Shown: piece by piece, positions 1 through 37,409 of the stretch
How the letters are laid out: every line of letters begins with the position of its first letter
How positions within the stretch are numbered: the stretch's first letter is position 1
Notes under the pieces: model-generated
The model's database searches: none
Told to the model about the DNA's origin: nothing
Seen by the model: only the letters and a program-made list of their open reading frames with translations
From: Gnetum montanum
Lineage: Eukaryota; Plantae; Gnetophyta
Assembly: GCA_015680685.1 (NCBI GenBank)
Contig: MNCI01002706.1
Coordinates: 1,020,758 to 1,084,757 of the forward strand
Direction of reading: 5' to 3'
DNA: 64,000 nucleotides
Program-made: the position numbers and the translations under genes

Positions 1-2537
1 GATCACAAGAGAAAGAAGGAAGCTGAACATGCCTACCAAAGGGCTAAGGGCAAAGCTATTATAGTAGAAGACGTTGTGGAGTCATAATTAAATGATGATG
101 GTGGGTGTGACATCTACCAATATGAACATCCTAAGGGATGTTGCCCTATTGTGTCACACTTGTAGGAATCTAGGGTGTACACTCTAAATCCTAGGCTAGC
201 AAGAAGTCAAGCATCAAGAATATTTTCTTATCCTCAAGGAAATCCTTGGAAGTTCCACCAACAACAAGCTTTTTATCCAATTGAAGCTCCACCATAGCCA
301 TATGAGCAGTAATAGTAGTGGTAGCACTCATAGTCATGAGTGATGCCACCACCAAGGCAGTAGTACCCTTACAGGTAACTAGATCTATATGGGTACTATG
401 TTCAGCAACCCATATCTCTATGTGACTTTTCTAGTCACACTTATTTTCAACATCACTACTACTCTCCAAAGTACTATAAAGCTCATTCTCCATCTCTCAA
501 TGAGAAACCCCCATTTCATTAGTGCCCTTCTCATTCTTCCACACTTGTCCCTCCTTCCTCAACCCAATTATCGCCTACTTCACCAATGTAGGGTGAGATT
601 CCCATGTAGCTACAACAACATAATACTACCAGGGTCATTAACTTACAACTAGTTCCTCCATTGAGTGGTTCAGAAGCTAGATCCAAAAAAGACCATTCAC
701 CTAAACCAATAGCCCTACAAAGCCCTCACTAACTCATGTGGCTAGTCACCCTATGTCTCCTTCATCCTCTGCATCTATTTTCTTTCAAAACCCTTCAAAC
801 CAAATGCTTTCCAAAATTTGCATAATCATGTTAACACATGATATATCCGATTCAATCAAGGGTAGCAACCTTTCAAGGAAAAGATCTAATCCTACAAGTC
901 CCCACATCTACTTGCATATTATTAGAAATGAGCCATGCAAGGCTCTTCTTGATTCAGCTTCTGGTGTCAATCTAATTTCTCACAAAATGTACAAAGCCTA
1001 GAACCATCCTCATCTCAAGAAGAGCAACATTCATTTAAAATTAGTAGATTAGTTTATCAATGTTCCCTTGGAATCAGTTGAGGACATTATGATCACTATC
1101 TATGAGTGGTTCTATCCTATCAATTTCCTGGCAATCAAGGTTGACAATTGCAAGGGGGGAATTTCCCATCATTATGTCAAGGGCTTGGTTGAGCACTATT
1201 AATGCGTGAATGAACATTAGAGATATTTCCCTAGAAATTTCAAAGGAAAATGAATTCAGAAAGATCAAGAAGAACAAAATTCCATGCATTACGTTCAACG
1301 ATATAGGGTGCAACTATGTGTAGAAGTTGAGATCTATCAAAAACACATCAATCAAAGCATGTAGACATTGTGCAGATGAATTTGAAATCCAAAAGTGCCT
1401 ATACACCATAGCCACAAAATAAGAGGGCACGCAGTGGCTAACACCTAATCCTAAAAGTAGCATATTTTTCATGGAATAGATTGAGAGCTTAACTTATGCC
1501 TATGTTGAAGACATGGATGAACTAGAGCAAGTTCATCATAAACTCTCTGATGATGAACCCGATGATACTTATTGGGAAGAGTTGGAAATCCCTAAAAATT
1601 TTAAACATGAGCCCTTAGAGTTGAAAACTCTATCTACCAACATGGAGTATGCATTCCTAAAAAATGGCAAGCTAGTAATAATCAATCCCAACCTTGCTCC
1701 TAAACAAAAAGAGAAGTTGTTGAATGTAGTTAGAAAATGGCCAACAACCTTTTCTTAGTCATATCCTGAACTCACTAAGATTGATCCTAGGATATGCCAG
1801 CATCATATCTATATTGGTCCTTCCATCAAGCAAAAGAAATAACCACAATGGCAGCTAAACCCCAAATTGAAGTAGATCTTCAAAGAAAAAATTGAACAAC
1901 TCCTCAAGGTAAGGTTCATCCATCTAATCACGGACAATGAGTGGGTTAGTCCACTTGTAATTATGTCAAAGAAATATGGCAAGTTGCAAGTCTATATTGA
2001 TTTTAGGCTATTAAACAAGGTGACCTACAAAGATCATTTTCCATTGCCATTTGTGGACTGGGTGTTGGCACTATCTCTAGGCATTGCTATTACAGCTTTT
2101 TGGATGGTTATAGTGGCTATAACCATATTCAAATTGCACCAAAGGATTAGGCCAAAATAACATTCACAAGTCTCTAGGGAACTTTTGCATATAAAAAGAA
2201 GCCTTTTGGTCTATGTAATGCCCTTGAAACATTCTAATGCCTTATCCTTAGTATTTTTGAACAAAAAATTGGTAGGGGGTGGAAGTCTTCATGGATGAAT
2301 TTTCCACCTATGGTGCTACATTTGAGAAAGCCCTGGACCACCTTTAGCAAGTTCTTAAAAGGTGTGCAAAGACAAATCTTTAACTCAATTGGCAAAAGAA
2401 CCATTTAATGATCCTGGAGGACATTGTGTTGGGGCATAGAATCTCACAAGTAGGGATTGAGGTAGACCCTGAAAAGATTAGGATCATCCAAGGAATAACC
2501 CATTAGCCAAAAATCATTAAATATTACTAATAATTCC
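1..2537 (+). pseudogene. Degenerate gag end, aspartic protease and RT N-terminal part of element A
   Basis: ORF fragments 738-1001, 1513-1758 and 1963-2160 carry gypsy PR/RT motifs. Many in-frame stops and frameshifts. Confidence 0.85.
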
Positions 2538-4195
2538 TAAAACACCACCAAATTTGGGATCTTGGGTCTCAACTACAAATTTGACTAAGTTTCAAAACTT
2601 AACAGATTTGCTCTAAGTGTTGAGACTATGTTCCAAAGCATAGTTAGCATAGTTGACACTAATAGTCTAGATTTGCAAAATTTTTCGAAGTGTCAATAGT
2701 AGCTACAAATATTTCTAAGTGTTCTGGCTATGCTCACCCTACTGAGACTATGCTCTAGAGCCTAGCTAGTGTAGTCAGCCTTGGAATGACTAGTTTTGTA
2801 GGTTTTCCTAAGTGTCAGGTCAGAGGCTGTTGAGCATGTATGGGATGAAAAAAAATAGTTTGGCAGATTTTATAACTCCTAAGCCTATAGTCCCTACTAT
2901 GCTCTAGAGCATAGTTAGCGTAGTCTACATGGGCATGTCATCTTTGCCAGATTTTTTCCAAGTGTTAAGGATATGCTCACACCACTTGAACTACACTCTA
3001 GAGTGTAGCTAGCATAGATTGCACAAAGGATCATTTTCTGGCAAGATTTGCCTAACTCATTGGGCTATGCTTCAGAGCATAGTTAGCATAGTTTTTTGAA
3101 ACTACCTTCAAAAGCTTTCAAAACTTAGCGTTGACTTGTATCTCAGCTTCAACATTCCTTCGGCAAGTAAGATCAACAATTTGCATTTCATTTGCATCCC
3201 CCCATTTTCCCCTACATTGTACTTATTCTTGACACCACTTGATAGAGTGGGCAACGTAGTCCTAGATTGTAGTCTCCAAATTGCATTATTTTACATTGTT
3301 TTCAAGAACATTGTAGTCTATTCAGCACTTGCACATGTAGTCTCAGTAGCATAGCCATAGTCTGGCAATCTCATAAGGTCCATTGGAGCACACCAACATA
3401 ACACCATTTTTCTTTAGTGGAAGCATAGTTAGGAGCTAGCATAGTCCCAACTACCCCTCTACCATGTGGTGCCCAATCTGCGACTCATGCTAACCTTAAC
3501 CCTATAAATACCCCTGCGCTTCACATTTTAGGGATTCACATTTTCATTTTGCAGTTGGCATTTTGGCATTAACACTCTTACACCCAAGCACCCTTAGCAA
3601 CTTGAAAAAATTTGGAACACCACCATAGCACCATTGTACACTTCCTAGCACACTGTAGACCATTGCAACTTGTGGGACACTGCGGCAGTCAACCTAGTAG
3701 GCTCAGACTCCACAATGGATATCAGTTCTTCATAGCTACATACCTTGAGACCATGACTATGCTCACCTACTATGCTTGTTGTACACAACATACCTCCTAA
3801 AATTTCCTTTGCAATTGACTATGCTCCCCTTTTTGAGGTGGTGCTTTTTTCTCTTGCTCCCATTCTATGCATTTTCACCTTTTTCTTATGTTTTTAGCAT
3901 TTGACTCACATTTCGCACTATTCAAGCACATGTTTGCTCATTCACACCTTCATTCTCGTGTCTAAAATCCTTGCTACACTCACACTCACAAACATCACAA
4001 ACATTGCAAAACACCATGTCCTCTTAAACACTCGTTTTGTTGTAACACTTGTAAGTCCCAGTTCAATCAACAAGATCATTCTAGACACCCCACTTCTATT
4101 TTCCAGCAGGCCCTCAAATGGGAGTAGGGTCAAGACTATGCGATCGCGGAGCTTTCATTGTCCCATTCAGGCCTTTGATGTTTTTGGTCGCTATA
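2538..4195 (+). repeat. 5' LTR of element T
   Basis: Colinear with 20085-21766 (taaaacaccaccaaat... vs tgaaacaccaccaaat...; ends ggtcgctata vs ggttgctaca). The TG and CA termini have both decayed to TA. Confidence 0.93.
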
Positions 4196-4201
4196 GTTTT
4201 T

Positions 4202-4217
4202 TGGCACTAGAAGAAGG
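4202..4217 (+). promoter_or_regulatory. Primer-binding site, tRNA-Asn type
   Basis: tggcactagaagaagg lies 6 nt after the LTR. It matches TGGCGCTAGAAGGAGG (complement of the plant tRNA-Asn 3' end, recalled from memory) with two G>A changes. Confidence 0.8.
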
Positions 4218-4589
4218 CCCCTCACCATTTCCTTCTTCAGTCATCCCTTATTACCTTGAGTGCTCTCTACACCGTTGCTATAGACTGGATCCCATTGTCA
4301 GTTTCCCTACAACCCCGCTAAACAACACCAAAGTGCATAACTTGCACTCGACCAAATTCTAGGTTCCTAATAGAGCATAGCTAGCTTTAGCGTAGTAAGT
4401 GTAGTAAGCTTTGAGCATAGTCCCAAAGTTATCATTTTCTTTAGCAATTTATAGTTAGCCATTTTTCTACATTTTTACACTTAGCTATTTTCTTAGCAGT
4501 TGCATACTTAGCTATTTTTCCACATTTTAGCACTTATCCATTTTTCTTCCTACTTTGCATAAGTAGCCTTTTGCATTTTCCTTCACACC

Positions 4590-7500
4590 ATGAACCTTGA
4601 ATAGCCTTCAAACTTTGCTCCAAGTGTGGTTGTTATCTAGCCTATTCAACGAGAAATATAGATTGACCTTCCTAGGGCTGGGAGTCCTATCTTGGCACAA
4701 AGGTAATCTCTTAGGTAGCACAACCTACCTCCTAAGGTCATGATGCTCAACAACGAGCAATATAACTTCATTTATGAGAAAATGTAGGTGGGCTTTCCTT
4801 TAGAACACTAAGAAATGGAGGCCAAACGTAGTTATAAAATCATGTACCATAACAAGAAGGAATGGCTCCCTTCTGATTTTGACTTTGTCCCACTCATGGA
4901 AGATTACCAGTGGATGCTAGACAACCTCGTCCATAACATGGGCCATGAGGGAGGGACAGACTATGAGAAGCCCCTCTAGGAGAAGCTAGAGGAGTTCAAG
5001 GCTTAATTTGAGCATAAGAACCCATACCATGCCTCACTCTAGCAGACAACCTCTACTTTTGTTCCTTCACAATCTTACAGCCCAACGTCATTGCCCAAGT
5101 TAACACTTGTGGTGGAAACCCACCAAATGTTGTAGATGCACCAGGATGTAGCTCCACCTTTTAGTCTTTCCTGTAATGTACCTTTTACCATCCCATCATA
5201 GCCTTCATAACTTGTTTAGCTTGTTCAGCCCATTCAGGTCATCCAACCTTATGTAGTAGTAACCATTGCACCTACGCAACCCTAGGTGCACACCATGCAC
5301 ATTCCTCCCCAACCATATGTGACTTAGATGTCATTCATCCTACCTATCATGCCTACACCCTTTATGATGGCCTAGCCCACAAACACGTGGTGGGGCTTGA
5401 GTGCTGTGTCCGTGGCATAGCCCACGTGATAGGCATCATGTGTGGTCACATAACACGAAATCAAGTTGTCGACCACCCAATAACCATTGCAGGTAGCACA
5501 ACCTACCATTGCAACCACACCTAGCCTAGATCAAGTATTCCAGCTGATCCAAAGCCTTACTGAAGAGTTCAAGCAACTTAAGGCTGCCTCCTTAGAAACC
5601 ATCCATGTGATGGCCTTCTACTAGGATGATCCAATCAGTCCTATAGTCCCACCACTAGCATTTCCCACAAGGGTTTCACTTCTACAATTCACCGAATACA
5701 ATGGTGAAGGGAACGCTAATGCCCATTTAGTGACCTTCTAGTCAAAATGCCTCTTACTATAGGCATGGCCAAATGCCATCATCTACATGTTCACCATGTC
5801 CCTAAATAGCAAGGCACTAGATTAGTATTGTGTGCTCCCTAGGGCCTCTATCACTTCTTTAGAGGGATTACTTATCCAATTTGTCACTCACTTCAAGTAA
5901 AACTTGAAGCCTAAGGTGACCCTAGACCAATTAATACAAGTAAAGCAAGGCCACTTAGAGCCCATGTAGAACTTTATTCAGCGATGAAGCACATCACTTA
6001 ATGTGATTCACGAGTCCATCGCAAAGACATACCTACTAGCCATTTTCAAAATCATAGTAAACAACTTCATCAATTCGAATTTGTATTACCTTGCTCCACA
6101 ATCCTTAAGCCAAGCGTTTGCTCAAACTAAGAGCATTCAGGATGCGATGGAGGCCAAAAAGGATCTAGCCTACATGGCCTACAAAAACTTGCACGCAAAG
6201 AAGGAAAAACGATAAGGAAAAAGGCAAATAAGTAATCACGACCATTGCAATGATGGCCAATGAGGCTAAGTTGGGCAACACCAAACCAATGGCCAAGTCA
6301 CCTAAGGCCCTAGCCAACAACAATAAGGTGGCCAGCCCTAGCCCAACAACAAACAACCAATCTACATCGTCAATGATCATGACACCAATTGCCATAAGGC
6401 CTAACTTCAAGCACAAGGATCACTCAAAGTATACACCATTATCCATCAAGTGGTTAAAGCTGTTGGACCAATTACTTCATGTTGGATGCATCCAATACAA
6501 GAAAATGTGCAAGGATGCTTACAAGCGGCATGATCGATACTACAAGCTCCTCAGAAATCCTTCAACTACACTGCCTAATGAGCCCCTAATCCCTAAGCAT
6601 TTTAGATTGGATCAATTTTTCTAATATCACCAACTGCAAGGTCATGACATAGAATTTTTCATGGCTTTAAAGGATGACATCCAATGCAAGATTGACAAGA
6701 GTGAGTTGGTCCTTGATGCTACCAACCTAGTGCACCCCAGAACTAGTCAATGGAGGTTTACAAGGACCTACTCAATGCAAGCAATGTCGAGTACTTCATC
6801 AATTCCATCAGCATTGATGACGATGCAGAACTGGTATGGGATCCATTCGTGGTTTGTGTGTCCTTTGGAAACACTAAGGCCTCATTAACATTGATTAGTT
6901 CGAGAACCCCTTTTATCATCAAAGCATCACCTCAAGTGCCCATAACATCCTTTGTGGTCAAGGCCCCATCACACGTCATAGTTGCAACATCCCAAACACC
7001 CTTCATTATAAGTATGATGTAAGGTGCAAGCTTCCTGCCTATTGGGAGCCCAATGATGGGTAATGCACTGGCCCCTGCTAGCCTAAGACCCCATCTTGCA
7101 AGTAGCACCAACAAACAAATGATATGGCAAACTGTAAGGCCTAAGTGCCTCATTGATCAAATGCTTAGGCAACATCAGAAGCAAAGGGCATTAGGCCCAC
7201 CAAAGCTTGTCCCCTTATCTTCCATCCCAATGGGCCAACCAACTAAAGAGGCCACTACAAGAAGTAGTCAACCACAAAGCACTGAGGCTTTGAAACAACT
7301 AAGTAGCCAACAATGGAGCACTAAGGCTTTAAAGTAAACAAAATAAGAAAGGCCCAAATCCCCTCCATGAGAGATCCATCTCTTGGGCCAAATGGAAAAG
7401 ATGAAGGCCATCAACAACAAAGACGAAAATGATGGCAAAGATTTCCTTGATGCATTAGCCCAAGTCAAGTAGGCTTTGAAAGAAAAAAAATACAACACTA

Positions 7501-8370
7501 AGCTTGTATGACCTAGTAATGACCTCCTCTACCCATCATGAAGTGTTAGTGCATATGTTGACCTCTATCCCTATCATGGAGGACATCCTAGAAGATGAGC
7601 AGACCATTGATGCTATGATGTTACCTTTGCCCTTGTAGGAATCAAGTTCAATGCCCCTAGCATTTTGTGATGAGGTGATCAAGGTGGACCCTGAGAAGGG
7701 TCAAGTCATTACCATGTCGATGTTCATTACCATCCACGTGGGGGAATGCAAAATCTACAGGGTGCATGTTGACGATAGGGCAACAACCAATGTCATCCCA
7801 TACACAGTCATTAACAAGCTTGGTCTCACTGACCAAATCCAATCAATGAAGAAAATACACCTGAAGTCCTTCAATGGGTCATGTGTTGTTGTAAGGGGAA
7901 CTATCATGATAGCCTTCATGGCAGGGGAGCAATTCCCCACCATTGTTGAATTCATAGTGGTTGAGAAGATGCCAGGGTTCAACCTAATCTTGGGTAGGCC
8001 CTAGCTGGCCCAGCTATGGACTGTCTCCTCCCCAATCCACTAGTAGATCCACCTTCTATATGAAGGTAGAGAGGTTATCATACATAGTGATAATGTAGCC
8101 CCTTTTATCATCAACAACATTGATGCCAAGAAAAGGTCAGAGGTGGAGTTCCTTGATGACATGCCTCCTGCAAAAGACAAAGGTAGAAAATGCAAAGAAA
8201 ACCAACTTGAAGAGCCAATGGAAGCCCTTGACCCTTCATAAGATACTTTGTGGGTAGAATTACCCTTCAACATAGCTGATGAAGGTTAAGGCAAGTACCA
8301 TATCATACCCTTTAGGCCCTACGCACCTCCTAACCCATACTAGATTAGAAAAAAAAATTACGCAATTAAG
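4590..8370 (+). pseudogene. Degenerate gag-protease of element T
   Basis: Retrotrans_gag-like stretch ~5660-6100 (FTEYNGEGNANAHLVTF...SLNSKALD*YCVLPRASITS). Tat-type knuckle remnant ~6610-6700 (YHQLQGHDIEF..LKDDIQ). Protease 7651-8004 (RVHVDDRATTNVIP...FNLILGRP). The start position is approximate. Confidence 0.85.
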
Positions 8371-11300
8371 GTATCCCCTTGGTCTAATAGGTGTTGGTTC
8401 CCAGCTTCCCTCACTTTTGCACACTTTACTTTTTTGCATTTTACATTAGCTTGGTTATCTATATCTTTTGCCTTATTCCTTTCTCTATGCACATTCTTTG
8501 ATTGTGCATCATGCTAAGTTTATATTTTTGCTTACTTTCTTTTAGTAATTAGTTTACACATGAAAAATTCAAAATACATAAACATCATAAAATGTAAAAG
8601 TTACAAAAGATACCATAGCTTGCTACAGCCTTAAACTGGTAGCACACGACCTACCATAGCCTTAAACTAGCAATCAATGGCCTAAAATGGCCTTAAACTA
8701 CTATGCAGCCCGCCATGGCCTAAAACTAACAATCAAATTTCCTTTATCGCTGAGGCCCAAAATGGCCTAAAACTATCAAAGTATTATCTACACATGTAGC
8801 CTGAAATGGCCTAAAACTAGCAATCACATTATCTATCGCACCATTCATGCAACACATAGCAAATAAATACAAAAATCCATTCATCATACATGCAACGTAG
8901 CAAAAATTCACATCATCTTATAAAATAGTATATGTCATCCACATCCTACAACAAAAATACACAAAATACAAAAGTGCCCAATGACAGGGCGACATCAGGA
9001 TCTACTTAACAAGTGGTGCTAGGTGGGGGTGGAGGCTCCTCTTCTTCCACCGTGCTGCTAGGGCTTGCAACATCACCTAGCACCTATCAATAACAACAAT
9101 AGCAAAGACATAAAAATTGTAAGAAAGTGTACAATATACAACTAACAGATAAAAGGCATAAAAGGCAATATAAAAAAACTAGCTTGAGAGGGTCCCACAT
9201 CGGCCATGTCTGGAGGTATTCTATCAAGGTCTTCCTCCAAGCATTAGAGGATCTCGACCTCTGATAGACATGTCTAGTCTTCCTAGCTAAATTCAACACC
9301 CACAAGGGTCTTGTCTTCATCCACTGTAATCCATGCAGGTAGCTGCATAGAAAAGATGGCAAACAAAGTCTCCCCTTAGGGCATGGAAATCTCCCACTCA
9401 GGAGAACCACTAACCACTGTGTGATAAGCGAATATCTCAAAAGCCTAACTCCCACTAATCACCTTAACAAAATCCTCAAGGTGGCGGGCTTTGACAAACT
9501 CCTCTTTGAGTTGTTGCAAATATGCGTCTCGCTCATGCTTGTAGTGGTGCTTGTGGTCCTTCTGCATGTGCCCCCACTTACACACCTTAGCATTGAAGCT
9601 CTTCCACTCCTAGCCCTTCGAGGCAAGCAGATCCATCTGTAGCCTCTACTCGATGATCTCCCAAGTTGCCTCATTCTCGTGTTGGATCATTGACCAGTAC
9701 TTAGCATAATTGATCTCTGTGGTCCATCTCCTCTTGCCCGAGCTAACAAAAAATCATATTGGAACTAAAGGTTCTCAATCTTCTCATTTTGGTTTATCAG
9801 TGTCATCTAAAGCTTGTGCATGCATTTCCACAGGTGCTCAAATCCATCATGTTTTCTCACTAGAAAGCATGCACTTGCTAGCTACCTCATACATGTGGTG
9901 AGACACTTATTCAACTTTAGGGGAATACTTGAGGACATCATCCACTTTGGCCACCTGGTTTAGATCCCAACAAAGCTTAGAACCTATTGGCATGTAACAA
10001 GCAAATTAACATTAGCCATAGACTAAGCATAAAATTGGTAAAGTAATGCAAGTAAAAAAACATGCATACTGAGCTCGAGATCTACCTGTTGTATGTAGTC
10101 CACCATGTCCTCGACTATGCCTTTCATGAAAGTGAATTTATCCGATGTCTCAACCCATGACTTCATGTAGTGGATAAGCGCATGTGATGGATCGCTAGTA
10201 GGAACATCTAAGGTTGTAACCCAACATGATGCAATATTTAGCACCAACTAAATAGCCAAAGATGCAAGAGCAAAAGAGCAAAAATAGATGGTAACTTAGA
10301 GCACTTACCACGCAAGCCCTCAAGTGTGAGAGCAACGGGATCTCCCAGCTACACACCATCAAAGAGGCTGGCAAAATCACCCTCATGAAGGTGGAATAGC
10401 CCTTCTACATCAAACTACTAGAAGGCCTCTATGGCCTTGTGTAGCTCCTCCTTGGGTGCCTTCTCCTCCTCAGCTTAAGAAGGGATTGTCTCTGCCACTA
10501 TCACTACCGCTGCTTCGGTAGCCCCCTCACCTAACTCACAAACATAACATAATAGCATTAGCATAACATACCAAGAAAATATAAAAATTATAAACATAAA
10601 AAAATTAATAATAAATGCATCTACACATGAACTAACCTGCAACATCCATGTGCAATGTTGGTATCTTAAAGTGGACTTTCTTGGTGCCCGCCTATCCAAT
10701 AGTAGGGGCAACTTTCTCTACCGAGTGTGGCCTCTTAATCTTTCTCTTCGAAGGTGCCACTATTTCTGCAATGTAATGATTGACTTTGTTCACATCCCCA
10801 ATAATAGTTGGGGGACACTCGCCTGTGCTGTCATAAGAGTAATGTGATCATGACCTCCCCAAATGGCCTTTGGTCATAACCAAATATAACTCATCAATCC
10901 CGTTTGAGGGATCCTGTGTGCAAGTGGTGGTTAATAAGTGTTTGACCCAAGGCTTGGATAATTGCTCACGATCCTACACTACCCAGTTCTCACTACCCTG
11001 GACCACCAAAAACTCCACAAACCTTCACAGATATGCTACAAAGAATGTGAAGTGCATGTGAGACCTCACCTGGAGGTTGTAGCAAAGCCTAGTAACCTTT
11101 GCTTATAGTCTAATGATGAGAAAGGAGGCCTAGTTAAACCTCGTGCCCTCCTCTAATACCTTCGCATCACTTGCACCTACTCCACCTCAAGGATTTTCCC
11201 TTGGGAGAGTAGCTTCGAAAAGGCATGAGCATGAAAAAGAGGGTAGAGCTCCCAAACATCAAGCACCTACATCTTTAACCATGATGCCTTTGTGAGATCA

Positions 11301-14300
11301 AGTGTTTTCCAACCACTCCTCAATCTCTCCTTTGTAGTCCACCTCTTTTTTGGCCTTATCAATAACCAATGAGCCCTCAAAGGGAAGGCCAAAGAGGTCA
11401 ACAAAGAAGGCATCATTAAGGACTAGGACTAACCTCACCCTGTGCATGTGGGTGATGAAGTGGTAGGCGTTACTGCTAAAGGAGTCAATAATAGTAACCA
11501 TCTCAGCCACCAGAATGCTTACGTTAAGGGCCAAGAAAAGGTCCATGAACCTAGCATGTGTGAGTTGACTCGTCAATGCCTCTAAGGCTTGATGGCATAA
11601 CTAGTGTTCTGCCCCCTCTACATCATCATACTTCATTATGAGAGTGGCCTCACTATGGCTTATGGTGACTACCATCACCTCTCTAGAAGGAACTACAACT
11701 GTAACATAGGAAAAATTAATATTAGCATTATGCAAGGGCAAATCAAAGAGTTCATGTGAGCAAGCTTAAAAGCCAAGCACACAAATGTTTACATGGAACA
11801 AATGATGTGCGAGGCAGTGGTGGCAATGCAACCAACTCCTCAAAGTTGGGCTTGCCACTCACCCACCCTTCATCAAACCAATTGAGGGTCTTGCACCACT
11901 CGAACACCTTCAAGTACTAAGTGGAGTATTTCTTTAAATCTTCTTCCACCTGCTCGATCATGGCCTTCTAAAAGTTCGTACTAAAGGAGAACACCTCTAG
12001 GGTGGTATGGGTTAAGGTAAGAGCCTCTGACTCATCATGGAGCCCTTGATCATTAACTTTAAATCTAGCATTAGGCATGAGCACTTAGCAATTAGCAAAT
12101 TTAGCATGGCCAATAGTAAGTGATACAATGCCAAATCATAAGAGCACTTACCCTCCAACATAATATACAATTCCAAGTGGGTTCTGGAACATGGTATGCA
12201 TGCGCAAAGCAATAAAAAAGATGTATCTCCTACTATAAGAGGAAAACTCTGGCATCCCCTAGATCTTGGATAAGGGACGAGAGCCCCTAGGGCCTTGCCT
12301 CGAACCACTTGCTTTGTCATCATCGATCGTGGGCTCATCAGACATGAACCTTAGTATGCCCCAGTTGGCCCTAGTTAGTAATGTCTCAGTGATGGTGGTT
12401 GCAACCTCCACTACTAGGTGTGACCACATGATCACACTAAAGTTCTGTAGCAGGAAAGCTAGGAATTCAGAGGCCCCTAGCCAAAACCATACTACCTAAT
12501 GATCCAACTTCATATCTAGTGTAGGCATGTTAGACATGGGCTTACTCATGCAACAAAGGATGTTGACAAGTTCCATGACAACTAAGATAGCCTTTAACAA
12601 TGCATTTTGTCAAAAATTTATTAATTTACACTTACCATAACTTAGAAAAATATCCTAGGGCCCTTTGGGCCTTGCGGGTATAGGACATCAACATACACAT
12701 TTGATGTGCCTGGTACTCATTAGGGTACAACATGTTAGCATAACATAAGCATTTCATTTCACATGTGTGCATGTTAGCATCATTTTGATTTGCAAGATTA
12801 GCATTATCGTAGTTTTTGGCATTATGGGCGTATGTTTACATTCAACAAAATTTTTCAAATTTTTTCTAACTCCAAGAAATGCAGCTTGGAGTAGGCACAA
12901 AAAATTCTAACTCTAGGCTACCTTTGGGAGTATAATCTAGAAACTGAAAAAGTTTTCTAACTATCAGCTACACTCCCTAAGGAGTGTTGCCCTTGAAAAC
13001 TTTAAATTCTTTAAAAAAAATTAATTGACTATTGGCCATACTCCCTAAGACTGTAGCCCCAATAGTGATCTTTTTTATAGAAGGAAATAATAGTTTGCAC
13101 TCTGCATCCCTGCTCCTCCTACCATCATGGTTGATGCCACAATGGTTGCACCACTGCCCTACCCCTCACTTCATCATATCCTCTGCCATGCATCCTACCT
13201 TACGAGCAGTGACAATCCCTGAACCCTCATGCCTACCACTACTTCCTCACCCCCACAGCATGCCCATTGATCATCATTGTAGCCCTAGACCCCACATAGA
13301 TGGCTGAAAATAATAATGATGATAGTCCCTAGTAGCACCCTCACAGTGTGGCAATCACCCATGGCTACCATCAGTGTTACTACCCTTGCCCTGTGTGCAA
13401 TCAAAAAAGAGGGGGATACAAAGATAATCACAACGATGACTCACCAAGCCTCAGTTTTGCAAGTGGTAGCCCTAGGGCCACTACCAAAACCTTAATCTAC
13501 TACCCTAATCACCCCTACAATCACTTTGATCATTGTAGTAGTTGTAGCCATTGCAACCCAAGCCCCTTGCCCCACATATAATCATGCCCATGCCTACCAC
13601 CACTCCCTCCCCTTTGCCACATGGCCACAACGATCATGGTGGCAGTGGCCTCGACCATGCCAGAGTTCCACTAATAAACCCTCCACTGCACATGAAATGA
13701 AATCAAAAAAATAATAAACAAAATATGTTCTCTTCTCCCCTCAACCCTACGCTAGCTTATGACTTCCCCACTCACAACTGCATAAATATTTGCAGTAGTC
13801 GTGGCTACTAAAACCCTTGCCTTCAAACCGCAATGCTAAAATAGAAAAAGAAAAAATAAGAAAATGAAACCCCTACCCATCATGCACTCCCTCACCATCG
13901 TGATAGTCATAATGGCCACAACAATGGCAGCCCTTGCCAAGGTAGGGTGCTTCCCATAAAACCCCAAAACCTCAAAAATGCCTAGTGCATGAGATCAAAA
14001 GAAAACACAAGAACAATGACAAAGGGATGAGTGTAGTGGCATACCTAGTAGTCGGCAGTGGTCTCCTCTCCTCCACGCATGCTTGCAGCAGGTGCTCTAA
14101 GACTTGCTTTCCTTCCTCCACATTGGCTAGGCTAGGGTGTTGACATCCACATCGATGTGACATGTTGTTGGCTACACTTTGGTAATTATGTTATGCTCTG
14201 GAAATTTTGATTTTACCTTTTGATGATGACAGTTTTACCAAGGGTAAAATGTGCTTATATATCCCTCGAACCCACTTAAATTCTTACCTACCCATTACTA

Positions 14301-14778
14301 TGCTCAATAGTGCTGAGTGTAGCCAGGTGTGAGCATAGTTTCCAGAGTTAGAAAAATTCTTAATTTTTCTGGTAGTCTCTGGACATTGAAAAATTTTAAA
14401 TTTTTCTCATCACTCAATTGGTGCCTAGGCCAATTTTACTTTTTCAATGCACCCAGCCTTGCCTTGATGATGCATTTAGTGCATTTCACCCATCTTCTAT
14501 GATGTTAAGCTGACATCCACCCATTCGCTATGACATTAAACTAGCATTTCACCTATCTGCTACGACGTTAAACTGGCATGTCATGGTCCATTAAGACCTT
14601 AAATTGGCAACCCACCCCATGGCCTACCAAGGCTCAAAAATGGCCCACGCAACCCTTGCTTTTACAATCACATTTACATACTTAGGTAGAATTTTATCAC
14701 ATTTTTTTCATTAACTCCGCATATTGCTCTCATTAAAAAAAGATGTGACTTGACATTTTTTTGGTTTTTTTTTTGCAA
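8371..14778 (+). other. Putative large intron separating protease from RT (Ogre-type intron position)
   Basis: AAG|GTATCC at 8370/8371 ends the PR frame at phase 0 and is followed by T-rich sequence. Branch-like cttgac ~14749, polypyrimidine tract, then TGCAA|GAT (ancestral TGCAG) at 14778/14779, also phase 0 with the pre-RT frame. Confidence 0.6.
8980..14262 (-). pseudogene. Antisense multi-exon accessory gene inside element T (Transposase_32/plant-mobile-domain-like region plus helical C-terminus), decayed
   Basis: Minus-strand T-rich introns at 9084-9183, 9984-10069 (GTATGC), 10208-10308 (GTAAGT), 10531-10636 (GTTAGT), 11699-11792 (GTAAAC), ~12057-12151 (GTAAGT); further donors at 12635 and 14044; TATATAA ~14256-14262. 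Exon 10637-11698 reads ...LVLNDAFFVDLFGLPFEG...EEGTRFN*ASFLII. Confidence 0.7.
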
Positions 14779-17700
14779 GATTATTGCAAGATTCACAACA
14801 TGACTACATATGAGCATTTTCATTCACCTCTAGTCCTCACTGGACCACACAATGATCTTACCCAATGCATCAATCTTCAATGCCTAAACCTTGAGCCCAT
14901 ATCCTACCATGCATACATAACATCTATAGAGGCACCACTAGACTAGCAGACCATCTAGTTAAGGCTCTAGATCTATAGGTACGTGATGTCACCAAGGATC
15001 CACCTGTTGAAGTCCCTATAGAACCATCTAGTAGCAAGGTGAAAACATTGAAACTTAGTTTTTTGTTAGATCGTCAACATGCCCAAAACATTGCAAAAGT
15101 ACTTAGCCACAACATCAAGGCATTCGTGTGGTCTTACAAAGACATGCCAAGCCTAGATCCTCATGTAGTGCAACAAAACATAATCCTCGATTCCAACATG
15201 AAACCAATCAAGCAGAAAGCCCACAAGGTTAGGCCTAAGGTGGCATTGGTAGTTCATGATGAAATCACCAAGCTCTATAAAGCTAGTTTCATCTGGGTCG
15301 TTGATTATGCAAACTGGATCTCCAACATCATTGTTGTCCCAAAGAAAAATGGAAGTATACACATCTACATAGACTTCTAGGACCTAAAAAAGGAAACCAT
15401 TAAAGATGATTTTCTGTTGCCTAGTATTGACCAATTCATTGATACTATGGCCGGTTATGCCTTGTTGTCCTTCATGGATGGGTTCTCAGGGTACAACTAG
15501 ATTCAAATCAACCTAGAGCACTAGCTCAATACTACCTTCATGATTCCTTGGGGTATGTTTAGCTACACCATGATGCCCTTTGGAGTTAAGAATGCAGGAG
15601 CAACTTATCAACAAGCTATGATGTACATCTTTAGCGATTACCTATTAGGTCTACTCAATGATTACATTGATGATATAGCAGTCAAATCTAGGGCATCACA
15701 CAATCATGCAGATGACTTAGACCTCATGCTCAAACGCTGCCTGAAGCATGAACTTAGGCTAAATCCTAAGAAATGTGTCTTTGGCATCAAGATGGGTTGC
15801 ATGCTAGGTTTTGTAGTATTTAAAGTAAGCATACAAGTAGACCCCAATAAGGTTAAGGCCATTATCAACTTAGCACCACTAGTTAACCTTAAGGAGCTAT
15901 GAGGATTAAGAGGAAAATTCTAATTCATACAATGGTTTATCGCATGGTTGATAAACAAGTTGCAGCCCATACAACATTTTCTCAAAAAGGGAGTTCACTT
16001 TGAGTGGATAGCTCAATGCCAAGTGGCATTTTACAACCTTAAATAGGAGCTGGCTCAACTTCCAACAATCTACCCTCTGTAAGGAGATAAACCATTCTAC
16101 ATCTACCTTGCTACCTTAGATGTGTTCATCGCTACTCTACTTTGTCAAAAGTAGGCCGATGGTACTGATGTCCCCATATACTACATAGGCCATGCATTAG
16201 TAGCCTACGAAGTAAAGTACAATGATGTAGAAAAGACTTGACTCACCTTAGTCTTCGCACTTAAGAAGTGGAGGCATTATCTTTTCCTCAGCCAAGTCAA
16301 CATCATCTACAAAAGTAACGTACTCCGAGCTATAATAATGAATATCTATGAGAATAGTCGCATTGCACATTGGAAAGAAATAACTACAAAGTTTAACTTG
16401 CATTACATTGTGTAAGCATTAACAAAAGGTCAGGCAATAGCCATACAACCTATGGCTTTCCCAATCAACGACCAAGCAACAATAGATCCAAAATTTCTGG
16501 ATGAGCATGTGACTAGTATAAGCCAAGTGCCTGACAACTTCAAGGCACTCTTACACTTCAATGGTGCTTCAACCTTCTAAGGAGGTAGTGCTGCTACCGT
16601 AATCACATTCCCCTCCAAGGAAATCTGACCCTTTGCATATCGCTTTGCATTTCCATGCACTAACAATGTGGCAAAGTACAAAGGTCTCCTCTGGGGCATC
16701 TTAGTAGCTCGCAACCTAGGAATCCAAAACCTAGCAGTCTAAGGTGACTTGTAACTAGTCATCAACCAAGTCACAGAGGTTTATGCTTGTAAAGCCCAAC
16801 ACTTTATGCTTTATTGTGACTTGGCAAAGCACTTGCTGAAGCAATTTGCAACTACTGATGTCTAGCATATGCCTTGCAAAAAAAAGTCCATAGTTGATGC
16901 ATTAGCTATGTTAACCTTAAGCATTGCACTTGAAATGTTTCACACATTGCCCACTATGGTGGCAAATTGCACTTTGCCTATCACACAAAAAATTGACATT
17001 ACACCTATAGCCACAATAAGCACAACCCATGCAATAGAGTGGTATGATGACATCAAGTCATACCTTCTACAAGGTGAATGTTCACAACATCTAACCACTG
17101 CCCAAAAGGATGTAGTGCAAAAGAAATCGTAGTAGTACATCATCATGGGTGATAGTACACAATGTCGCCGATCCTATGATGGCATACTACTAACATGCAT
17201 TAGGAATGACAAAGTGCAGACAATTTTTGAACAAGTCCATGAGGGACTCTGTGGAGGTCACATAGCACCCACGGCAATGATAGCAAAAATCAAACACTTA
17301 GGCTACTATTGGCCTTACATGGATCATGATTGTGTCTCCAAGGCCAAGATGTGTGACACATGTCAATGACATGGTAACTTAATGCACATGCCACCTATTG
17401 AACTACATACAACATAGATCACATGGCTATTACAACATTGAGGGGTTGGACATCATATGACCAATAACACCTACATCCTCTACAAGCCATAGCTTCATTA
17501 TAACTACCACTAAGTACTTTATGAAGTGGGTATTTTTCTTAGGAAGACTACATCACAACAGGTTTGCAAATTCATACTTGATAACATAGTATCCCATTTT
17601 GGTTTACCCATAACCATAGTCACAAGCAATAGGCCATAGTTTAGTAGTGTTGATACCAAAGCCTTTTGCAAGTGCCTCAAAATCAAACATTCCTTTTTTT

Positions 17701-18267
17701 TCACCTTACTATCCACAAGAAAATGACTAGGTGGAGGCCACAAACAAGGTCATCATCAATCTTTTAAAGAAAATGCCTCACAGTAGCAAATGGTGATGGC
17801 ATGAGCAACTAATCTATACACTCTGGGCCTACTACACGACATGAAGAACTACAATAGGTAAGATGCCATGCAATTTGATTTATGGGTTTGAAGCCATGAC
17901 AAGAATTGCAGGTCCTATTGCTTCATGTAATCCTTTCAAGCTTCATTGATGATGTTTAAAATGATGAGTTCAAAACCATAGACCTTAACTCAATAGAGGA
18001 GTGCATGTAGACACTTGGTCAAATTGAGTGGTACCAACAAATGCAATGGCAAAAGCACCATCATAGTCAACATCAACGCTTGATCAAGGAGGGTGACCTA
18101 GTTCTCAAGGCTATTTGCAAACCCACAGATTAATTCTCAGCCAACTAGGAAGGGCCTTTGTTGCTCATCAAGGCCTATGGCAATAAAGCATTCAAGTTGT
18201 TGACCATGATGGCAATGAATTCTCCAATCCGGTGAACCACTCGTACCTAAAGCTGTATTATGCCTAG
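14779..18267 (+). pseudogene. Degenerate pol of element T: RT, RNase H, archaeal-type RNase H, integrase
   Basis: FVWSYKDMPSLDP, WISNIIVVPKKNGSIHIYIDF, MMPFGVKNAGATYQQAM, DYIDDI. aRH at ~16550-16900 (HFNGAS..GGSAATVI...FPCTNNVAKYKGLL...GDL*LVINQV). Integrase zinc finger (VHEGLCGGH...GYYWP...CDTCQ), ending LKLYYA*. Confidence 0.92.
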
Positions 18268-18309
18268 TACGTAATGCCTCATTAATGATAAAGTAAGGTA
18301 AATAGTAGT

Positions 18310-18562
18310 CCACTATGACTATAAACTAACACAAAGAGTTCATTATGACTATAAACTAGCACAAATAGTCCTTGGGCCATGACACTAAAATTGGCACCCA
18401 TAGCATTCATCCACCACGACGCTTAAACTAGCATAGCTCATCCTTGCATCATGATGTTAAACTAGCACAACATCCACCATTTTCTATGACATTAAATTAG
18501 CACCCAACAATCTGCTAGGACTATAAAGTAGCATATTGCAGTCTACCAGGACCTTAAATTGG
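18310..18562 (+). repeat. Degenerate tandem array (~30-37 bp units, core ATGAC(A/G)TTAAACTAGCA) after integrase
   Basis: About 7 units such as ctatgactataaactaacac, ttatgactataaactagcac, atgatgttaaactagcac and ctatgacattaaattagcac. Related arrays at ~8620-8825 and ~14497-14610. Confidence 0.75.
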
Positions 18563-20071
18563 GTTTGTAGTTCAACACTCATAGTTCTATGGACAAGTGA
18601 GCATGAATACTTCCAATCCTCCATCATCTATCCACACCTCATGGGTAGGGCAAGGCGGGGTGTTGCAGTTCTAGAATAGAGTTCATGTCATCAAGAGAGG
18701 CCTCTGGAACATTTGTAGTGTTACCACCCTTGGCATTTTTCTAATCCTTTGGAAATGCCTTTCGGCATTTTTTTGACCATCCAGAGCTCCTGCCATGATC
18801 ACTAACAATACCAACCCTAGGCGACACTTATAGCATTACCAACCTTAGGTATTTCATTATTGGTTGGAGCTCTCACAATCAAGCCAACTCTTTGGAGTAG
18901 TGGTACCATTAGGGCCCTGGCCATCTCGCATACTCTATCAGGATCTTGCCATTGCTTGAGTACTTGCCTTTAGTGTGGTTGCTAGAGCTTTTGCAACTCT
19001 CTTGCTCTAACACCTACACTAGTTTTCCTACATTGGCGCTGCAAGCTCTTGTAACTAGTCTAGCACTTGTGGAACTTGTAACATCCTCACAACTAGTAAT
19101 TTTCTCTCATCTCATATTGTGTGGTTGTTTTGCCTCTTTTCTTAGTGTTTTATTTGTAGGACGAAGCCCCATAGGTAGTTGTGCATAAATGCATCTCATC
19201 ATAATGGTAAGACATCACATTACTTCAATGTGCATGATTAGGCTAGCTGAACCACTCAAGAGTGCAAATCCCTATTACTCCCCCTATCACTTACTTGCAT
19301 TTATCTATTGCATTTCCTTGTTTTCCCCTACATCACTAAGTTTGCAACCCCTCCAATGCACATGACACCCTCTTTACGTCAACCAGACATAACACAACTT
19401 GTTCTATGGGGAGCTTCTATAGGCTAGTCAAAGCCCAAGAAGATGTAACATGACTCATCTTGAGGAGGAAACACCTATCCTACAGATGCAACACGGTTGC
19501 ACTAAAGCAAGGCCCGTTAGGTGGCATGCAGCCCACTTGATGAAAAGCATCCCACGAGTAGCATCTCACAATAGGCAAAACCTAGAGCAAGTTAGCCTCA
19601 TAGTTAAAAATAAATAAAAATAAGGTAAAACAAGTAACCAAGCATAATTATCAGGGCTATAGTTTCGCAACTGGTCCAACCCTCAATCTGCATTGATCTT
19701 CTCATAAGCACTCAAATGAGAGGTGACAATTTTAGGAACAAACTTTTCTAGTGCCATGGATGCTAACTCTCTCAAAAGCACTCTAACAAGAGGTTACTAT
19801 TTTGACAATGAGCTACCTTGGTGCCACAATCCCTGTCAGCCATGTTGACTTCACATCTTGCAATGGCATGCATTGTTTGCATCTCATTTCCTTGTCACCT
19901 CTTAGTATACTTCCTTCATCCTTTATCCCCAGCATACCATTACACTTAGCACTCTTTAGCATGATGAAGTGACACTTAGTTAGGTACTAACAAGTGATGT
20001 TGGTGTTGGACCTATCATGGTGTTTTGTGTTCTTTGTCGATGTCTCTTGGGCCACTCCTCCAGACATCCAC

Positions 20072-20084
20072 AAAGAGGGGCCAA
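20072..20084 (+). promoter_or_regulatory. Polypurine tract of element T
   Basis: aaagaggggccaa immediately before the TG of the 3' LTR. Confidence 0.85.
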
Positions 20085-21766
20085 TGAAACACCACCAAAT
20101 TCAAGCTCTTGGGTCTCAACTGAAAATTTAACTAAATGTCAAAAATTGGCAAATTTGTTCTAAGTGTTGAGACAACGCTCCTACTACTAGGACTACACTC
20201 CAAAGCGTAGTTAGCATAGTTGATACTAATAGTCCAAATTTGCAAAATTTTTCTAAGTGTCAATAGTAGCTGCAAATATTTTTAAGTGTTTTGGCTATGC
20301 TCACCCTACTAGGACTACACTCTAGAGCATAGCTAGCGTAGTCAGCCTTGGAATGACTTATTTTGTAGGTTTGCCTAAGTTTCATGTTAAAGGCTATTGA
20401 GCATGTATTAGATGAAAAAAATAGTTTGGTAGATTTTCTAACTCTCGAGCCTACGCTCCCTACTATGCTCTAGAGCATAGTTAGCATAGTCTACATGGGC
20501 ACATCATCTTTGCTAGATTTTTTCCCAAGTGTCAAAGCTATGCTCACACCTTTGAGACTATGCTCTAGAGTGTAGCTAGCATAGCATGCATAAAGCATCA
20601 TTTTCTAGCAAGATTTTCCTAACTCCTTGGGCTACACTCCGAAGCATAGTCAATGTAGTCTGCTGAAACTACCTTCAAAAGCTTCCAAAATTTAGCATTG
20701 GCTTACATCTCAACTCCAACATTCCTTCAACAAGCAAGATCAGCAATTTGCATTTCATTTGCATCCCCTTGTTTGCCCCTAAATTGTACCCATGCTCGAC
20801 ACCACTTAAGAGAGTCGGCAGTGTAGTCCTAGAGCATAGTCTCCAAATTACACTATTTTGCATTATTGTCAGGAACATTGCAATCTGTTCGGCACTCACA
20901 CATGCAGTCTTAGCAGTGTAGTCATAGTTTGGCAGTCTCATAGGGCCCATTGGAGTGCACCAGCAGAACACCACTTTACTTGAGTAGGAGCATAGTTAGG
21001 GGCTAGCATAGTCCCAACTACCCCTCTACCACATGGTGCCCAATCTGCGACTCATGGTAACCCTAACCTTATAAACGTCCATGTACTTCATGTTTTAGGG
21101 GTTTGCATTTTTATTCAAAAATTGGCATTTTGGCATTGACACTCTTACATCCAAGCATCCTTAGCAACTTGACAAAATCTAGAACACCACCATGACACCA
21201 TTGTACACTGCCCAACACACCATACACCACCACAACTTATGGGACACCACGACAGCTAACTCAATAGGCTTAGACTCCACAGTGGACATTAGTTCTTCAT
21301 AGCTAGACATCCTTAGACTATGACTACACTCACCTACTATGCCTGTTGTACACTGTGTACCTCCTAAACTTTCCTTTGTAATTGACTACACTCCCTTGTT
21401 TGGAGTAGTGCTTTTCTCTCTTGCTCACAGTCTATGCACTTTTCACATTTTTTTTCTTAGATTTTTAGCATTTTACTCACATTTTACACTATTTAAGCAC
21501 ATATTCGCACATTCGCACCTTTGTTCTCACGTTTGAAATCCCTGCTACACTCACATCCACAGACACTGCGAACATTGCAAAACACCCCATCCCCTTTAAC
21601 ACTCATTTTGTCGTAACACCCATAACTCCTAGTTCAATTGACAAGACTGTTTTGGGCATCCCACTTCCATTTTCTTGTAGACCCTTATGCGAGAGCTGGG
21701 TCAAGACTGTGTGACCATAGACCTCTCGATGTCCCATTCTAGCCTTCAACATTTTTGGTTGCTACA
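20085..21766 (+). repeat. 3' LTR of element T
   Basis: TG...CA termini, colinear with 2538-4195, followed by TSD ATTCC. Confidence 0.95.
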
Positions 21767-21771
21767 ATTCC

Positions 21772-36681: not shown

Positions 36682-37409
36682 NNNNNNNNNNNNNNNNNNN
36701 NNNNNNNNNNNNNNNNNNNNNNNNNNNNNNNNNNNNNNNNNNNNNNNNNNNNNNNNNNNNNNNNNNNNNNNNNNNNNNNNNNNNNNNNNNNNNNNNNNNN
36801 NNNNNNNNNNNNNNNNNNNNNNNNNNNNNNNNNNNNNNNNNNNNNNNNNNNNNNNNNNNNNNNNNNNNNNNNNNNNNNNNNNNNNNNNNNNNNNNNNNNN
36901 NNNNNNNNNNNNNNNNNNNNNNNNNNNNNNNNNNNNNNNNNNNNNNNNNNNNNNNNNNNNNNNNNNNNNNNNNNNNNNNNNNNNNNNNNNNNNNNNNNNN
37001 NNNNNNNNNNNNNNNNNNNNNNNNNNNNNNNNNNNNNNNNNNNNNNNNNNNNNNNNNNNNNNNNNNNNNNNNNNNNNNNNNNNNNNNNNNNNNNNNNNNN
37101 NNNNNNNNNNNNNNNNNNNNNNNNNNNNNNNNNNNNNNNNNNNNNNNNNNNNNNNNNNNNNNNNNNNNNNNNNNNNNNNNNNNNNNNNNNNNNNNNNNNN
37201 NNNNNNNNNNNNNNNNNNNNNNNNNNNNNNNNNNNNNNNNNNNNNNNNNNNNNNNNNNNNNNNNNNNNNNNNNNNNNNNNNNNNNNNNNNNNNNNNNNNN
37301 NNNNNNNNNNNNNNNNNNNNNNNNNNNNNNNNNNNNNNNNNNNNNNNNNNNNNNNNNNNNNNNNNNNNNNNNNNNNNNNNNNNNNNNNNNNNNNNNNNNN
37401 NNNNNNNNN
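36682..37409. other. Assembly gap (N run)
   Basis: Run of N. It covers the expected LTR end, PBS and gag start of element C. Confidence 0.99.

Follow-up and report, generated by a model that had tools for sequence, protein, structure and literature searches.

This locus in Gnetum montanum raised the question of how a gene interrupted by introns came to lie backwards inside a retrotransposon, and what it would do there. Where the extra ORFs of plant Ty3/gypsy elements came from, and what they do, is still debated (PMC7264820). The window, the whole stretch of 64,000 nucleotides analyzed here, held a complete but decayed Ty3/gypsy element of the Tat clade, an old and dead copy, and inside it a minus-strand gene of 922 codons with six coding introns, placed between the protease and the reverse transcriptase (RT). 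We consider it probable that this multi-copy gene is a heritable accessory gene of the element with a promoter of its own.

The host element and the space between protease and RT

The following features of the element were identified (positions in the window):

2538..4195, plus strand: 5' LTR, with the target duplication ATTCC at 2533-2537 just before it
4202..4217, plus strand: stretch resembling a primer-binding site (PBS), starting TGG, read from the sequence
4590..8343, plus strand: gag-protease, decayed, from tblastn with homologous polyproteins (start approximate)
8291..14833, plus strand: candidate sense-strand intron of 6,543 nt around the antisense gene, with a GC donor and an AG acceptor, each in phase 1
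14454..14607, plus strand: block 66-74% alike to the post-integrase block at 18439-18562
14834..18270, plus strand: RT, RNase H, additional RNase H (aRH) and integrase, decayed (Pfam RVT_1, RT_RNaseH, RVT_3, Integrase_H2C2, rve)
20072..20084, plus strand: polypurine tract (PPT)
20085..21766, plus strand: 3' LTR, with ATTCC at 21767-21771 just after it

The LTR pair was 81% identical (K2P 0.21), and a single 5-bp target duplication (ATTCC) bracketed the element with the antisense gene inside, in agreement with the first-pass annotation, which had placed the gene within a retrotransposon. Gag homology extended over 5505-6200 and protease homology over 7480-8130 (tblastn), and the gag-protease frame closed at the stop at 8341-8343. 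The layout was that of the Tat clade, with the order PR-RT-RH-INT, two LTRs, PBS, PPT and target duplication. The mark of that clade, the aRH (RVT_3, E 1e-9), lay between RT_RNaseH and Integrase_H2C2 in a Pfam scan that covered the first 37.4 kb of the window. In an RT tree of 45 rows chosen from 80 loci and 120 proteins, rooted at the midpoint and drawn without Retand references, the window RT formed a long end branch (1.12) outside a supported Ogre-type group of 38 rows. The RT query had no match among viral contigs.

The distance between protease and RT was 7.0 kb; at all 48 related loci compared, it was 0.7-1.9 kb. Published extra ORFs are located either 5' of gag or else 3' of pol. Neither of these sites, which are those of Ogre, was used here, the gene sitting between PR and RT, and the three minus frames of 18300-20101 gave no Pfam match and no ORF of 120 aa. 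The first-pass annotation had overlooked both this position and the pseudogene state of the copy. A full-text literature search, judged from its listings except for the papers cited here, found no extra gene between protease and RT and no introns in plant antisense extra ORFs; Steinbauerova 2008/2011, Gomez-Orte 2013, Zhao 2011 and additional files 1 and 3 of PMC6317226 may bear on these two negatives.

The separation of gag-protease from RT-RH-INT, flanked by phase-compatible sense splice sites, pointed to a candidate sense intron at 8291-14833, and conservation fell just inside both of its borders. The candidate consisted of one donor-acceptor pair; in this copy a stop immediately precedes the donor, and 14834-14943 is in a different frame from RT. 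No RNA joint for it was seen in four thinly covering RNA runs. We regard it as evenly balanced whether the cassette sits in such an enlarged Ogre-type protease-RT intron, which would be kept in genomic RNA and spliced for the full polyprotein. If it does, it shows how several kilobases of cargo can be accommodated within the pol of a retrotransposon that stays functional.

A backwards gene with six coding introns

The antisense gene, read from its putative promoter to its end, was composed as follows:

14220..14340, minus strand: putative promoter, with a TATA-like box at 14261-14254, LTR-type 7-mers and a multi-copy block at 14225
12445..12635, minus strand: candidate 5'UTR intron A, 191 nt, upstream of the likely ATG at 12345
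12152..12345, minus strand: coding exon 1, its inferred start being the likely ATG at 12345
12065..12151, minus strand: intron B, 87 nt, phase 2, donor GTAAGT, spanned whole by a diverged contig
11793..12064, minus strand: coding exon 2
11699..11792, minus strand: intron C, 94 nt, phase 1, donor GTAAAC
10637..11698, minus strand: coding exon 3, the best-conserved part, with a possible plant-mobile-domain (PMD) fold
10531..10636, minus strand: intron D, 106 nt, phase 1, donor GTTAGT
10309..10530, minus strand: coding exon 4, acidic
10208..10308, minus strand: intron E, 101 nt, phase 1, donor GTAAGT
10070..10207, minus strand: coding exon 5
9984..10069, minus strand: intron F, 86 nt, phase 1, donor GTATGC, spanned whole by a diverged contig
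9184..9983, minus strand: coding exon 6, 27% charged residues
9084..9183, minus strand: intron G, 100 nt, phase 0, GC donor GCTAGT
9006..9083, minus strand: coding exon 7, stop TAA
8560..9005, minus strand: putative 3'UTR, T-rich, with short repeats of a type also seen after integrase

Seven or more introns of 86-106 nt had been proposed in the first-pass annotation; six of them (B to G) were confirmed in the coding part, but a seventh of that size was not, intron A measuring 191 nt. The introns were T-rich on the minus strand, as had been claimed (38-56% T in introns B to G vs 18-30% in exons). The named donors GTAAGT, GTATGC, GTTAGT and GTAAAC were found in introns B to F, and the last junction, between GPSQ and VLGD, joined in frame, but its donor in intron G was GC rather than GT. 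A CTAAT branch-like motif lay 27-32 nt before the acceptor in four of the six introns; a branch motif was looked for in intron A and not found. Four further acceptor-like T tracts at 13982-13391 fell within a poorly conserved stretch and are candidates only. A 148-nt tandem array in the 5'UTR was not supported.

An amino-acid model trained on unrelated polyproteins chose the splice-predicted frame in all seven exons, an agreement that would be expected by chance once in 729 (six junctions), but the splice sites had been picked by eye. A fixed-rule intron caller recovered introns B, D and F exactly and C with other ends, missing E, G and A; it called four introns on the minus strand and none on the plus, and four were reached in 6 of 200 shuffles. 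The spliced frame contained 30 internal stops in 922 codons, against 46 and 89 in the other frames and approximately 53 expected at random (pol, for comparison, had 18 in 799 codons). Its 30 stops make the antisense gene a pseudogene here. The frame test showed no need to assume compensating frameshifts in exon 6.

Genomic contigs at 80% likeness were drawn from four organisms (runs X1, X5, X7 and X8), depth in them not being copy number. Summed depth in X1 was 926-8220 over the coding bins (9122-12565) vs 6912-9346 over the protease bins, while the contigs of this locus itself had depths of 3.6-7.6. The other three organisms gave the same depth shape, and in all four the coding part was covered about as deeply as the protease. 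Introns B and F were bridged whole by contigs that had diverged by 16-18%, and the coding exons were free of indels among the 12 listed of 17. None of the listed contigs joined the gene to the protease or to RT in another copy. Taken together, the frame test, the deep multi-copy cover, the retention of introns B and F in diverged contigs, and a conserved block by the TATA box support the view that the element contains an antisense gene that is spliced and present in many copies.

Four RNA runs from two studies, of which approximately 2% or 26% of each was read at 80% likeness, gave thin cover and two joints, neither at an intron of the antisense gene; the cover at 10576-10615 and at 14756-14792 was a poly(A)-like artefact. 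First mates in X10 were mostly plus over the gene and the protease alike, a pattern that, in a library of unspecified strandedness, speaks neither for nor against expression. Because no splice junction was seen in RNA, "separately transcribed" and "regulatory", the terms applied to the gene in the first-pass annotation, remain inferences.

Promoter, protein and competing explanations

The TATA box previously placed near 14256 was recovered at 14261-14254, and a second TATA-like box lay at 13079. Three LTR-type 7-mer motifs stood at 14298-14332; the window held 83 matches to this motif, with 45 in LTR bins and 5 in 14001-14500. Depth in genomic contigs beside the TATA box was 721 at 14225 vs 55 at 14205. 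The promoter region was similar to the leader of the element (63% over 104 nt, E 1.7e-4) as well as to the post-integrase block.

These flanks bear on a different origin of the arrangement, in which the accessory gene, like its counterparts in Ogre and TatIII, normally lies 3' of integrase, and this copy, or a small subfamily, arose when a deletion derivative with gag-protease and the antisense gene recombined with an RT-integrase segment. The duplication of the post-integrase block at 14454-14607 would agree with such an event, as would the near single-copy cover at 8508 (2.9-18.6) and 13050-13420 (approximately 6 in X1). Some Retand clusters have gag and protease but lack RH and INT, and according to PMC6317226 an antisense ORF is present 3' of pol in 60% of Ogre elements, in 86% of Retand elements and in 18% of those of TatIII. 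We nonetheless judge recombination rather unlikely, as neither a polypurine tract nor the remains of an LTR turned up between promoter and RT, a single target duplication was present, the listed positions at 14225-14912 were all multi-copy (101-5477 in X1), and phase-compatible sense splice sites flanked the cassette.

The first-pass annotation had likened the largest exon to Transposase_32 and PMD proteins and had proposed a check with HMMER. No Pfam family matched any exon, including PF20167 (Transposase_32), PF10536 (PMD) and PF04195 (Transposase_28), and no transposase domain was found in exons or upstream frames. The score against the window's own PF20167 ORF was reached by 75 of 1000 shuffles. 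No homolog of exon 3 was found by a word-index search at near and longer lengths (stops read as X), by HMMER over 1.84 billion representatives, among PDB sequences (one chance match at E 1.1) or among metagenome contigs, and Ogre ORF1 profiles did not match it (rank 16/1004 in one test). For exon 6 and the small exons, the search comprised Pfam and local sets only. A single-sequence AlphaFold model, made without an alignment, had a mean pLDDT of 31 and was set aside.

What survived of the proposed likeness was a weak collinear match over approximately 200 residues to the antisense ORF of the TatIII locus L028, which itself matched Pfam PMD at E 0.006. The score was 86.5, against 46 ± 7 for shuffles; it was reached by 1 and 5 of 5000 shuffles in two runs (shuffle p 0.0004-0.003), L028 having been chosen after inspection of 345 ORFs, among which unrelated ORFs reach 83. 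The pair had an hhalign probability of 1.7% (P 0.03) and a BLASTP E of 0.043. The L028 ORF and that of a second locus, L055, had a dN/dS of 0.13, and the L055 ORF alone had no Pfam match. On this sequence comparison, exon 3 is probably PMD-related.

The same anatomy could instead serve a Rev-like factor that exports unspliced genomic RNA with the 6.5-kb intron, or an antisense RNA that tunes expression. A very large retained intron would create a need for an export factor, CERV of C. elegans Cer1 exports unspliced RNA according to the available part of PMC10309623, and a regulatory role of antisense RNA has been proposed (PMC7264820). Against this, the weak PMD link points to chromatin or transcription (PMC7156037, as far as available). 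No RNA-binding domain was detected in the exons by Pfam, and the sense intron is a candidate only; we consider this explanation unlikely.

A further alternative is that the cassette landed in the element once, as an insertion able to multiply by itself, either a DNA transposon (Mutator-like or other) or a gene captured from the host. Genes of DNA transposons and of hosts typically contain many introns. Mutator-like elements also have PMD (PMC4408406), and no contig bridged protease to gene or gene to RT in another copy, among the 32 listed of approximately 198,000 pieces and 15 of 1450 joints, but such an insertion is very improbable given depth similar to the protease, flanks whose motifs and blocks recur in the LTR, leader and 3' spacer of the element, no terminal inverted repeats among the 25 longest of 97 pairs, and no transposase domain.

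As a heritable accessory gene of the element, the gene would be transcribed from the TATA box at 14261, and its introns would persist because they face backwards on genomic RNA. Its product is predicted to be a nuclear PMD-type protein helping to keep the element transcribed. It is conceivable, if on balance somewhat doubtful, that this protein acts in trans on the 7-mer clusters of the LTRs and its own promoter, countering silencing. More tentative still is the broader proposal of an undescribed deep Tat lineage whose polyprotein is split by a 6.5-kb intron carrying, backwards, a six-intron gene of fully eukaryotic build with its own promoter. A single locus might then yield three RNAs: the genomic RNA, left unspliced, a spliced one for gag-pol, and a spliced antisense mRNA encoding a PMD-type regulator. 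Antisense PMD genes with introns might be old and overlooked in Tat, and might link these elements directly to DNA transposons and hosts, whose PMD genes also contain introns.

Comparison with known systems

The closest parallels in layout were with Ogre, for which the available passages of PMC6317226 describe an aRH between RH and INT, long LTRs, a 5-bp duplication, antisense extra ORFs that are often PMD, and gag-protease set apart from RT by a spacer, which in pea and Medicago is an intron (Neumann et al. 2019). In those passages the spacer averages 274 bp, whereas here it spans approximately 6.5 kb and holds the gene; the Ogre extra ORFs are 5' in sense or 3' of pol, rather than between PR and RT, and introns in them are unmentioned. 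The position of the window RT outside the Ogre-type group may be a further difference.

Retand, Grande and RIRE2 elements (aORF-3R) likewise carry an antisense gene with short repeats around it (PMC7264820, PMC11963269), and gene23 of Grande has its own promoter and a nuclear protein (PMC7264820). Their ORFs, however, lie between pol and the 3' LTR with Transposase_28, which was unmatched here, and the word "intron" is absent from the main text of PMC11963269. The TatIII elements (Ustyantsev et al. 2015, PMC4408406; L028 and L055) also carry an antisense ORF, PMD-like and with weak collinear similarity to exon 3; in L028 the domain is followed by a 92-nt phase-1 intron, and a TATA-like box is present. 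In contrast to the present element, the aRH of L028 and L055 follows integrase, and their gene, of approximately 350 codons, lies 3' of pol with one coding intron vs six here. The brtn gene of Boty in Botrytis is also an antisense extra gene in a Ty3/gypsy element, but it is fungal and 3' of pol (as cited in PMC7264820 and PMC8365987).

Backwards extra genes are thus already known in such elements, normally at the far end and without so many introns described. What stands out here is the position between protease and RT, the most unusual feature, and the six introns. The retained introns record the backwards entry of the gene as genomic DNA, and their positions could be used to trace its donor.

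Structure and decay of the antisense gene

The antisense gene was real, multi-copy, and structurally unusual. It comprised seven minus-strand exons (2,766 nt, 922 codons) with a likely start codon, ATG, at 12345 and a TAA stop at 9006. The six coding introns (87, 94, 106, 101, 86, and 100 nt) were all T-rich with YAG 3' ends, CTAAT lay 27-32 nt 5' of the acceptor in four of them, and the last began with a GC donor. The splice-predicted frame was chosen in 7/7 exons by an amino-acid model that did not draw on the splice calls, in support of the first-pass annotation's proposal of an antisense gene with T-rich introns. At least seven introns of 86-106 nt had been claimed; six coding introns of that size were recovered, while the seventh candidate was 191 nt long and preceded the ATG. 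Introns at the additional T tracts, which reach as far as 14044, are unproven. A fixed-rule intron caller returned four introns for the minus strand, three of which coincided exactly with those above, and none for the plus strand; a count of four was reached in 6 of 200 dinucleotide shuffles. An upstream TATA box had been placed near 14256, in agreement with the first of two TATA-like boxes:

14261, TATA-like box
13079, TATA-like box

Internal stops numbered 30 in the spliced frame, compared with 46 and 89 in the two alternatives, and pol had 18 in 799 codons; the gene in this copy is therefore dead, having decayed roughly as much as pol.

The enclosing retrotransposon

The gene lies within a Tat-clade Ty3/gypsy element with the following features, LTRs being located by self-comparison with ends read from the sequence, and gag and protease by homologous polyproteins:

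2538-4195, 5' LTR
4202, start of a PBS-like stretch beginning TGG
5505-6200, gag
7480-8130, protease
20072-20084, purine tract
20085-21766, 3' LTR

The LTRs were 81% alike in self-comparison, with ATTCC at the outer side of each. Their divergence (K2P 0.21) and CpG depletion (0.23 of expectation) indicated that this copy is old. Pfam domains at ~15,300-17,700 followed the order RT, RNase H, second RNase H (RVT_3), and integrase. The passages cited from the REXdb survey define the Tat clade by a second RNase H, located in Ogre and Retand between RH and INT (PMC6317226), as it also was here. Best matches to pol were just ~30-40% identical. In a midpoint-rooted RT phylogeny built on 45 selected rows, with no Retand reference, the window's RT fell on a long branch outside a supported 38-row Ogre-type group.

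The Tat element interrupted a second Ty3/gypsy element within its pol, at a point separating RT from RNase H. This host element (1-2537 and 21772 to about 28500, plus strand) lacked aRH and carried a sense ORF, Transposase_32 plus coiled-coil-like, 3' of pol at ~26.2-28.5 kb (Pfam E 8e-5). Further Transposase_32 ORFs (E 2e-11), related to the host element's, occurred at about 31500-33300 (minus strand), oriented against neighbouring repeats, and at 62800-63700. A further, decayed gag-pol lay at 57175-60525 (plus strand), its DNA ~56-59% alike to the host's pol, and a 728-nt N run at 36682-37409 (assembly gap) was the source of six long false ORFs.

The antisense gene was located between protease and RT, in a gap measured here as 7,032 nt. 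Among 80 fetched related metagenome loci (RT identity to the window <=47%), the 48 with an upstream protease all had gaps of 723-1,907 nt. One Ogre-type polyprotein (3,053 aa, in a cluster of 122 members; P0002, loci L010 and L011) carried a precomputed PF01612 (3'-5' exonuclease) upstream of gag. Extra ORFs are classed in the cited survey passages solely as 5' or 3' and sense or antisense, from a search confined to outside the polyprotein region (PMC6317226).

Diverged copies and the candidate sense intron

Four DNA runs, each under the label of a different organism, supplied contigs that were aligned to the window at 80% likeness. In one run, X1, summed depth was 926-8,220 over coding bins, with the maximum on exon 3 (10637-11698, minus strand), 6,912-9,346 over protease, and 3.6-7.6 for the locus's own contigs. 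Depth does not equal copy number, as the mapping tool cautions; the hundredfold to thousandfold excess nevertheless indicated many diverged copies of the antisense gene. The first and fifth coding introns were spanned whole by contigs 16-18% diverged, while a near-identical piece from the same run differed by 2%, so the diverged contigs represent paralogs with introns kept. Position +5 of the second coding intron's donor was the consensus base in nearly all cover, and none of the 12 indels listed, of 17, fell in coding exons. Genomic RNA is the plus strand; minus-strand introns thus escape splicing and are copied with each transposition, and intron retention in the diverged contigs was consistent with such survival.

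Depth was 721 at 14225, adjoining the upstream TATA box, and dropped to about 50 throughout 13140-14000; of the two boxes this pattern favours the one at 14261 as promoter, followed by a variable 5'UTR. Two results count the other way: none of the 32 pieces listed, of about 198,000, joined the gene to either protease or RT, and cover fell to near single-copy at 8508 and 13050-13420. The putative antisense promoter region resembled two other parts of the element, its leader and the block after integrase, and carried a 7-mer motif that was also dense in both LTRs; these sequence likenesses argue for a cassette native to the element family. Both orientations of the 7-mer, frequently arranged as inverted pairs, were dense at 2540-4420, 14030-14340, and 20100-21500 (LTRs, leader, and antisense promoter); the motif is a candidate binding site.

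On the sense strand, splicing from a GC donor at 8291 to an AG acceptor at 14833, each in phase 1, would remove 6,543 nt; without splicing, the gag-protease frame stops 17 codons beyond the donor. Multi-copy cover in X1 (32 at 8403, 103 at 14743, 5,477 at 14912) fitted these borders; 8291-14833 is no more than a candidate sense-strand intron enclosing the antisense gene.

The encoded protein and its possible role

The first-pass annotation had likened the protein to Transposase_32 or plant mobile domain (PMD, PF10536) proteins, and no exon matched in a Pfam search. Four large searches returned no homologs of exon 3, which matched neither Ogre ORF1 profiles nor the window's own Transposase_32 ORF. 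Weak support for the PMD part of the claim came from two TatIII-layout loci, each with a 3' antisense ORF:

L028, 9695-8480, minus strand, antisense PMD-like ORF
L055, 14631-13400, minus strand, antisense PMD-like ORF

The L028 ORF matched PMD (E 0.006), the L055 ORF had no match, and dN/dS for the pair was 0.13. Exon 3 aligned collinearly with the L028 ORF over ~200 residues, spanning both motifs originally reported. The score of 86.5, for a pair picked post hoc, compared with 46±7 for shuffles and was reached in 1/5,000 and 5/5,000 (two runs), while unrelated ORFs scored up to 83 and hhalign gave the pair 1.7%. The L055 score was reached in 16/5,000 shuffles, and a reverse search ranked exon 3 first of 732 segments of the 64-kb window, narrowly (166 vs 159.5). 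PMD ancestry of exon 3 is therefore likely rather than established.

We favour, by analogy, a nuclear PMD-type protein that would be made from the gene's own promoter and act on promoter motifs common to the element, sustaining its transcription. This reading draws on Grande gene23, described in the cited passages as having its own promoter and a nuclear protein (PMC7264820), and on host PMD proteins with roles in gene expression and silencing (PMC7156037). The main alternative is a Rev-like factor, for which CERV offers a precedent in the portion cited (PMC10309623). Mapped RNA reads contained no splice junctions of the antisense introns, their cover being thin and uninformative on expression of the gene.

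Antisense accessory genes in Tat elements are already known. Like the gene described here, the L028 antisense gene was intron-bearing (a 92-nt phase-1 coding intron) with a TATA-like box; L055 kept the donor and had lost the acceptor AG, and 5'UTR introns are probable in both. Introns in 3' antisense PMD-like ORFs of TatIII-layout elements were not found in the literature searched, and introns in Tat antisense accessory genes appear wider spread than described. What is new here is the six coding introns and the location inside pol, where the 7,032-nt gap contrasts with the Ogre protease-RT spacer, given in the cited passages as a partly spliced intron averaging 274 bp (PMC6317226).
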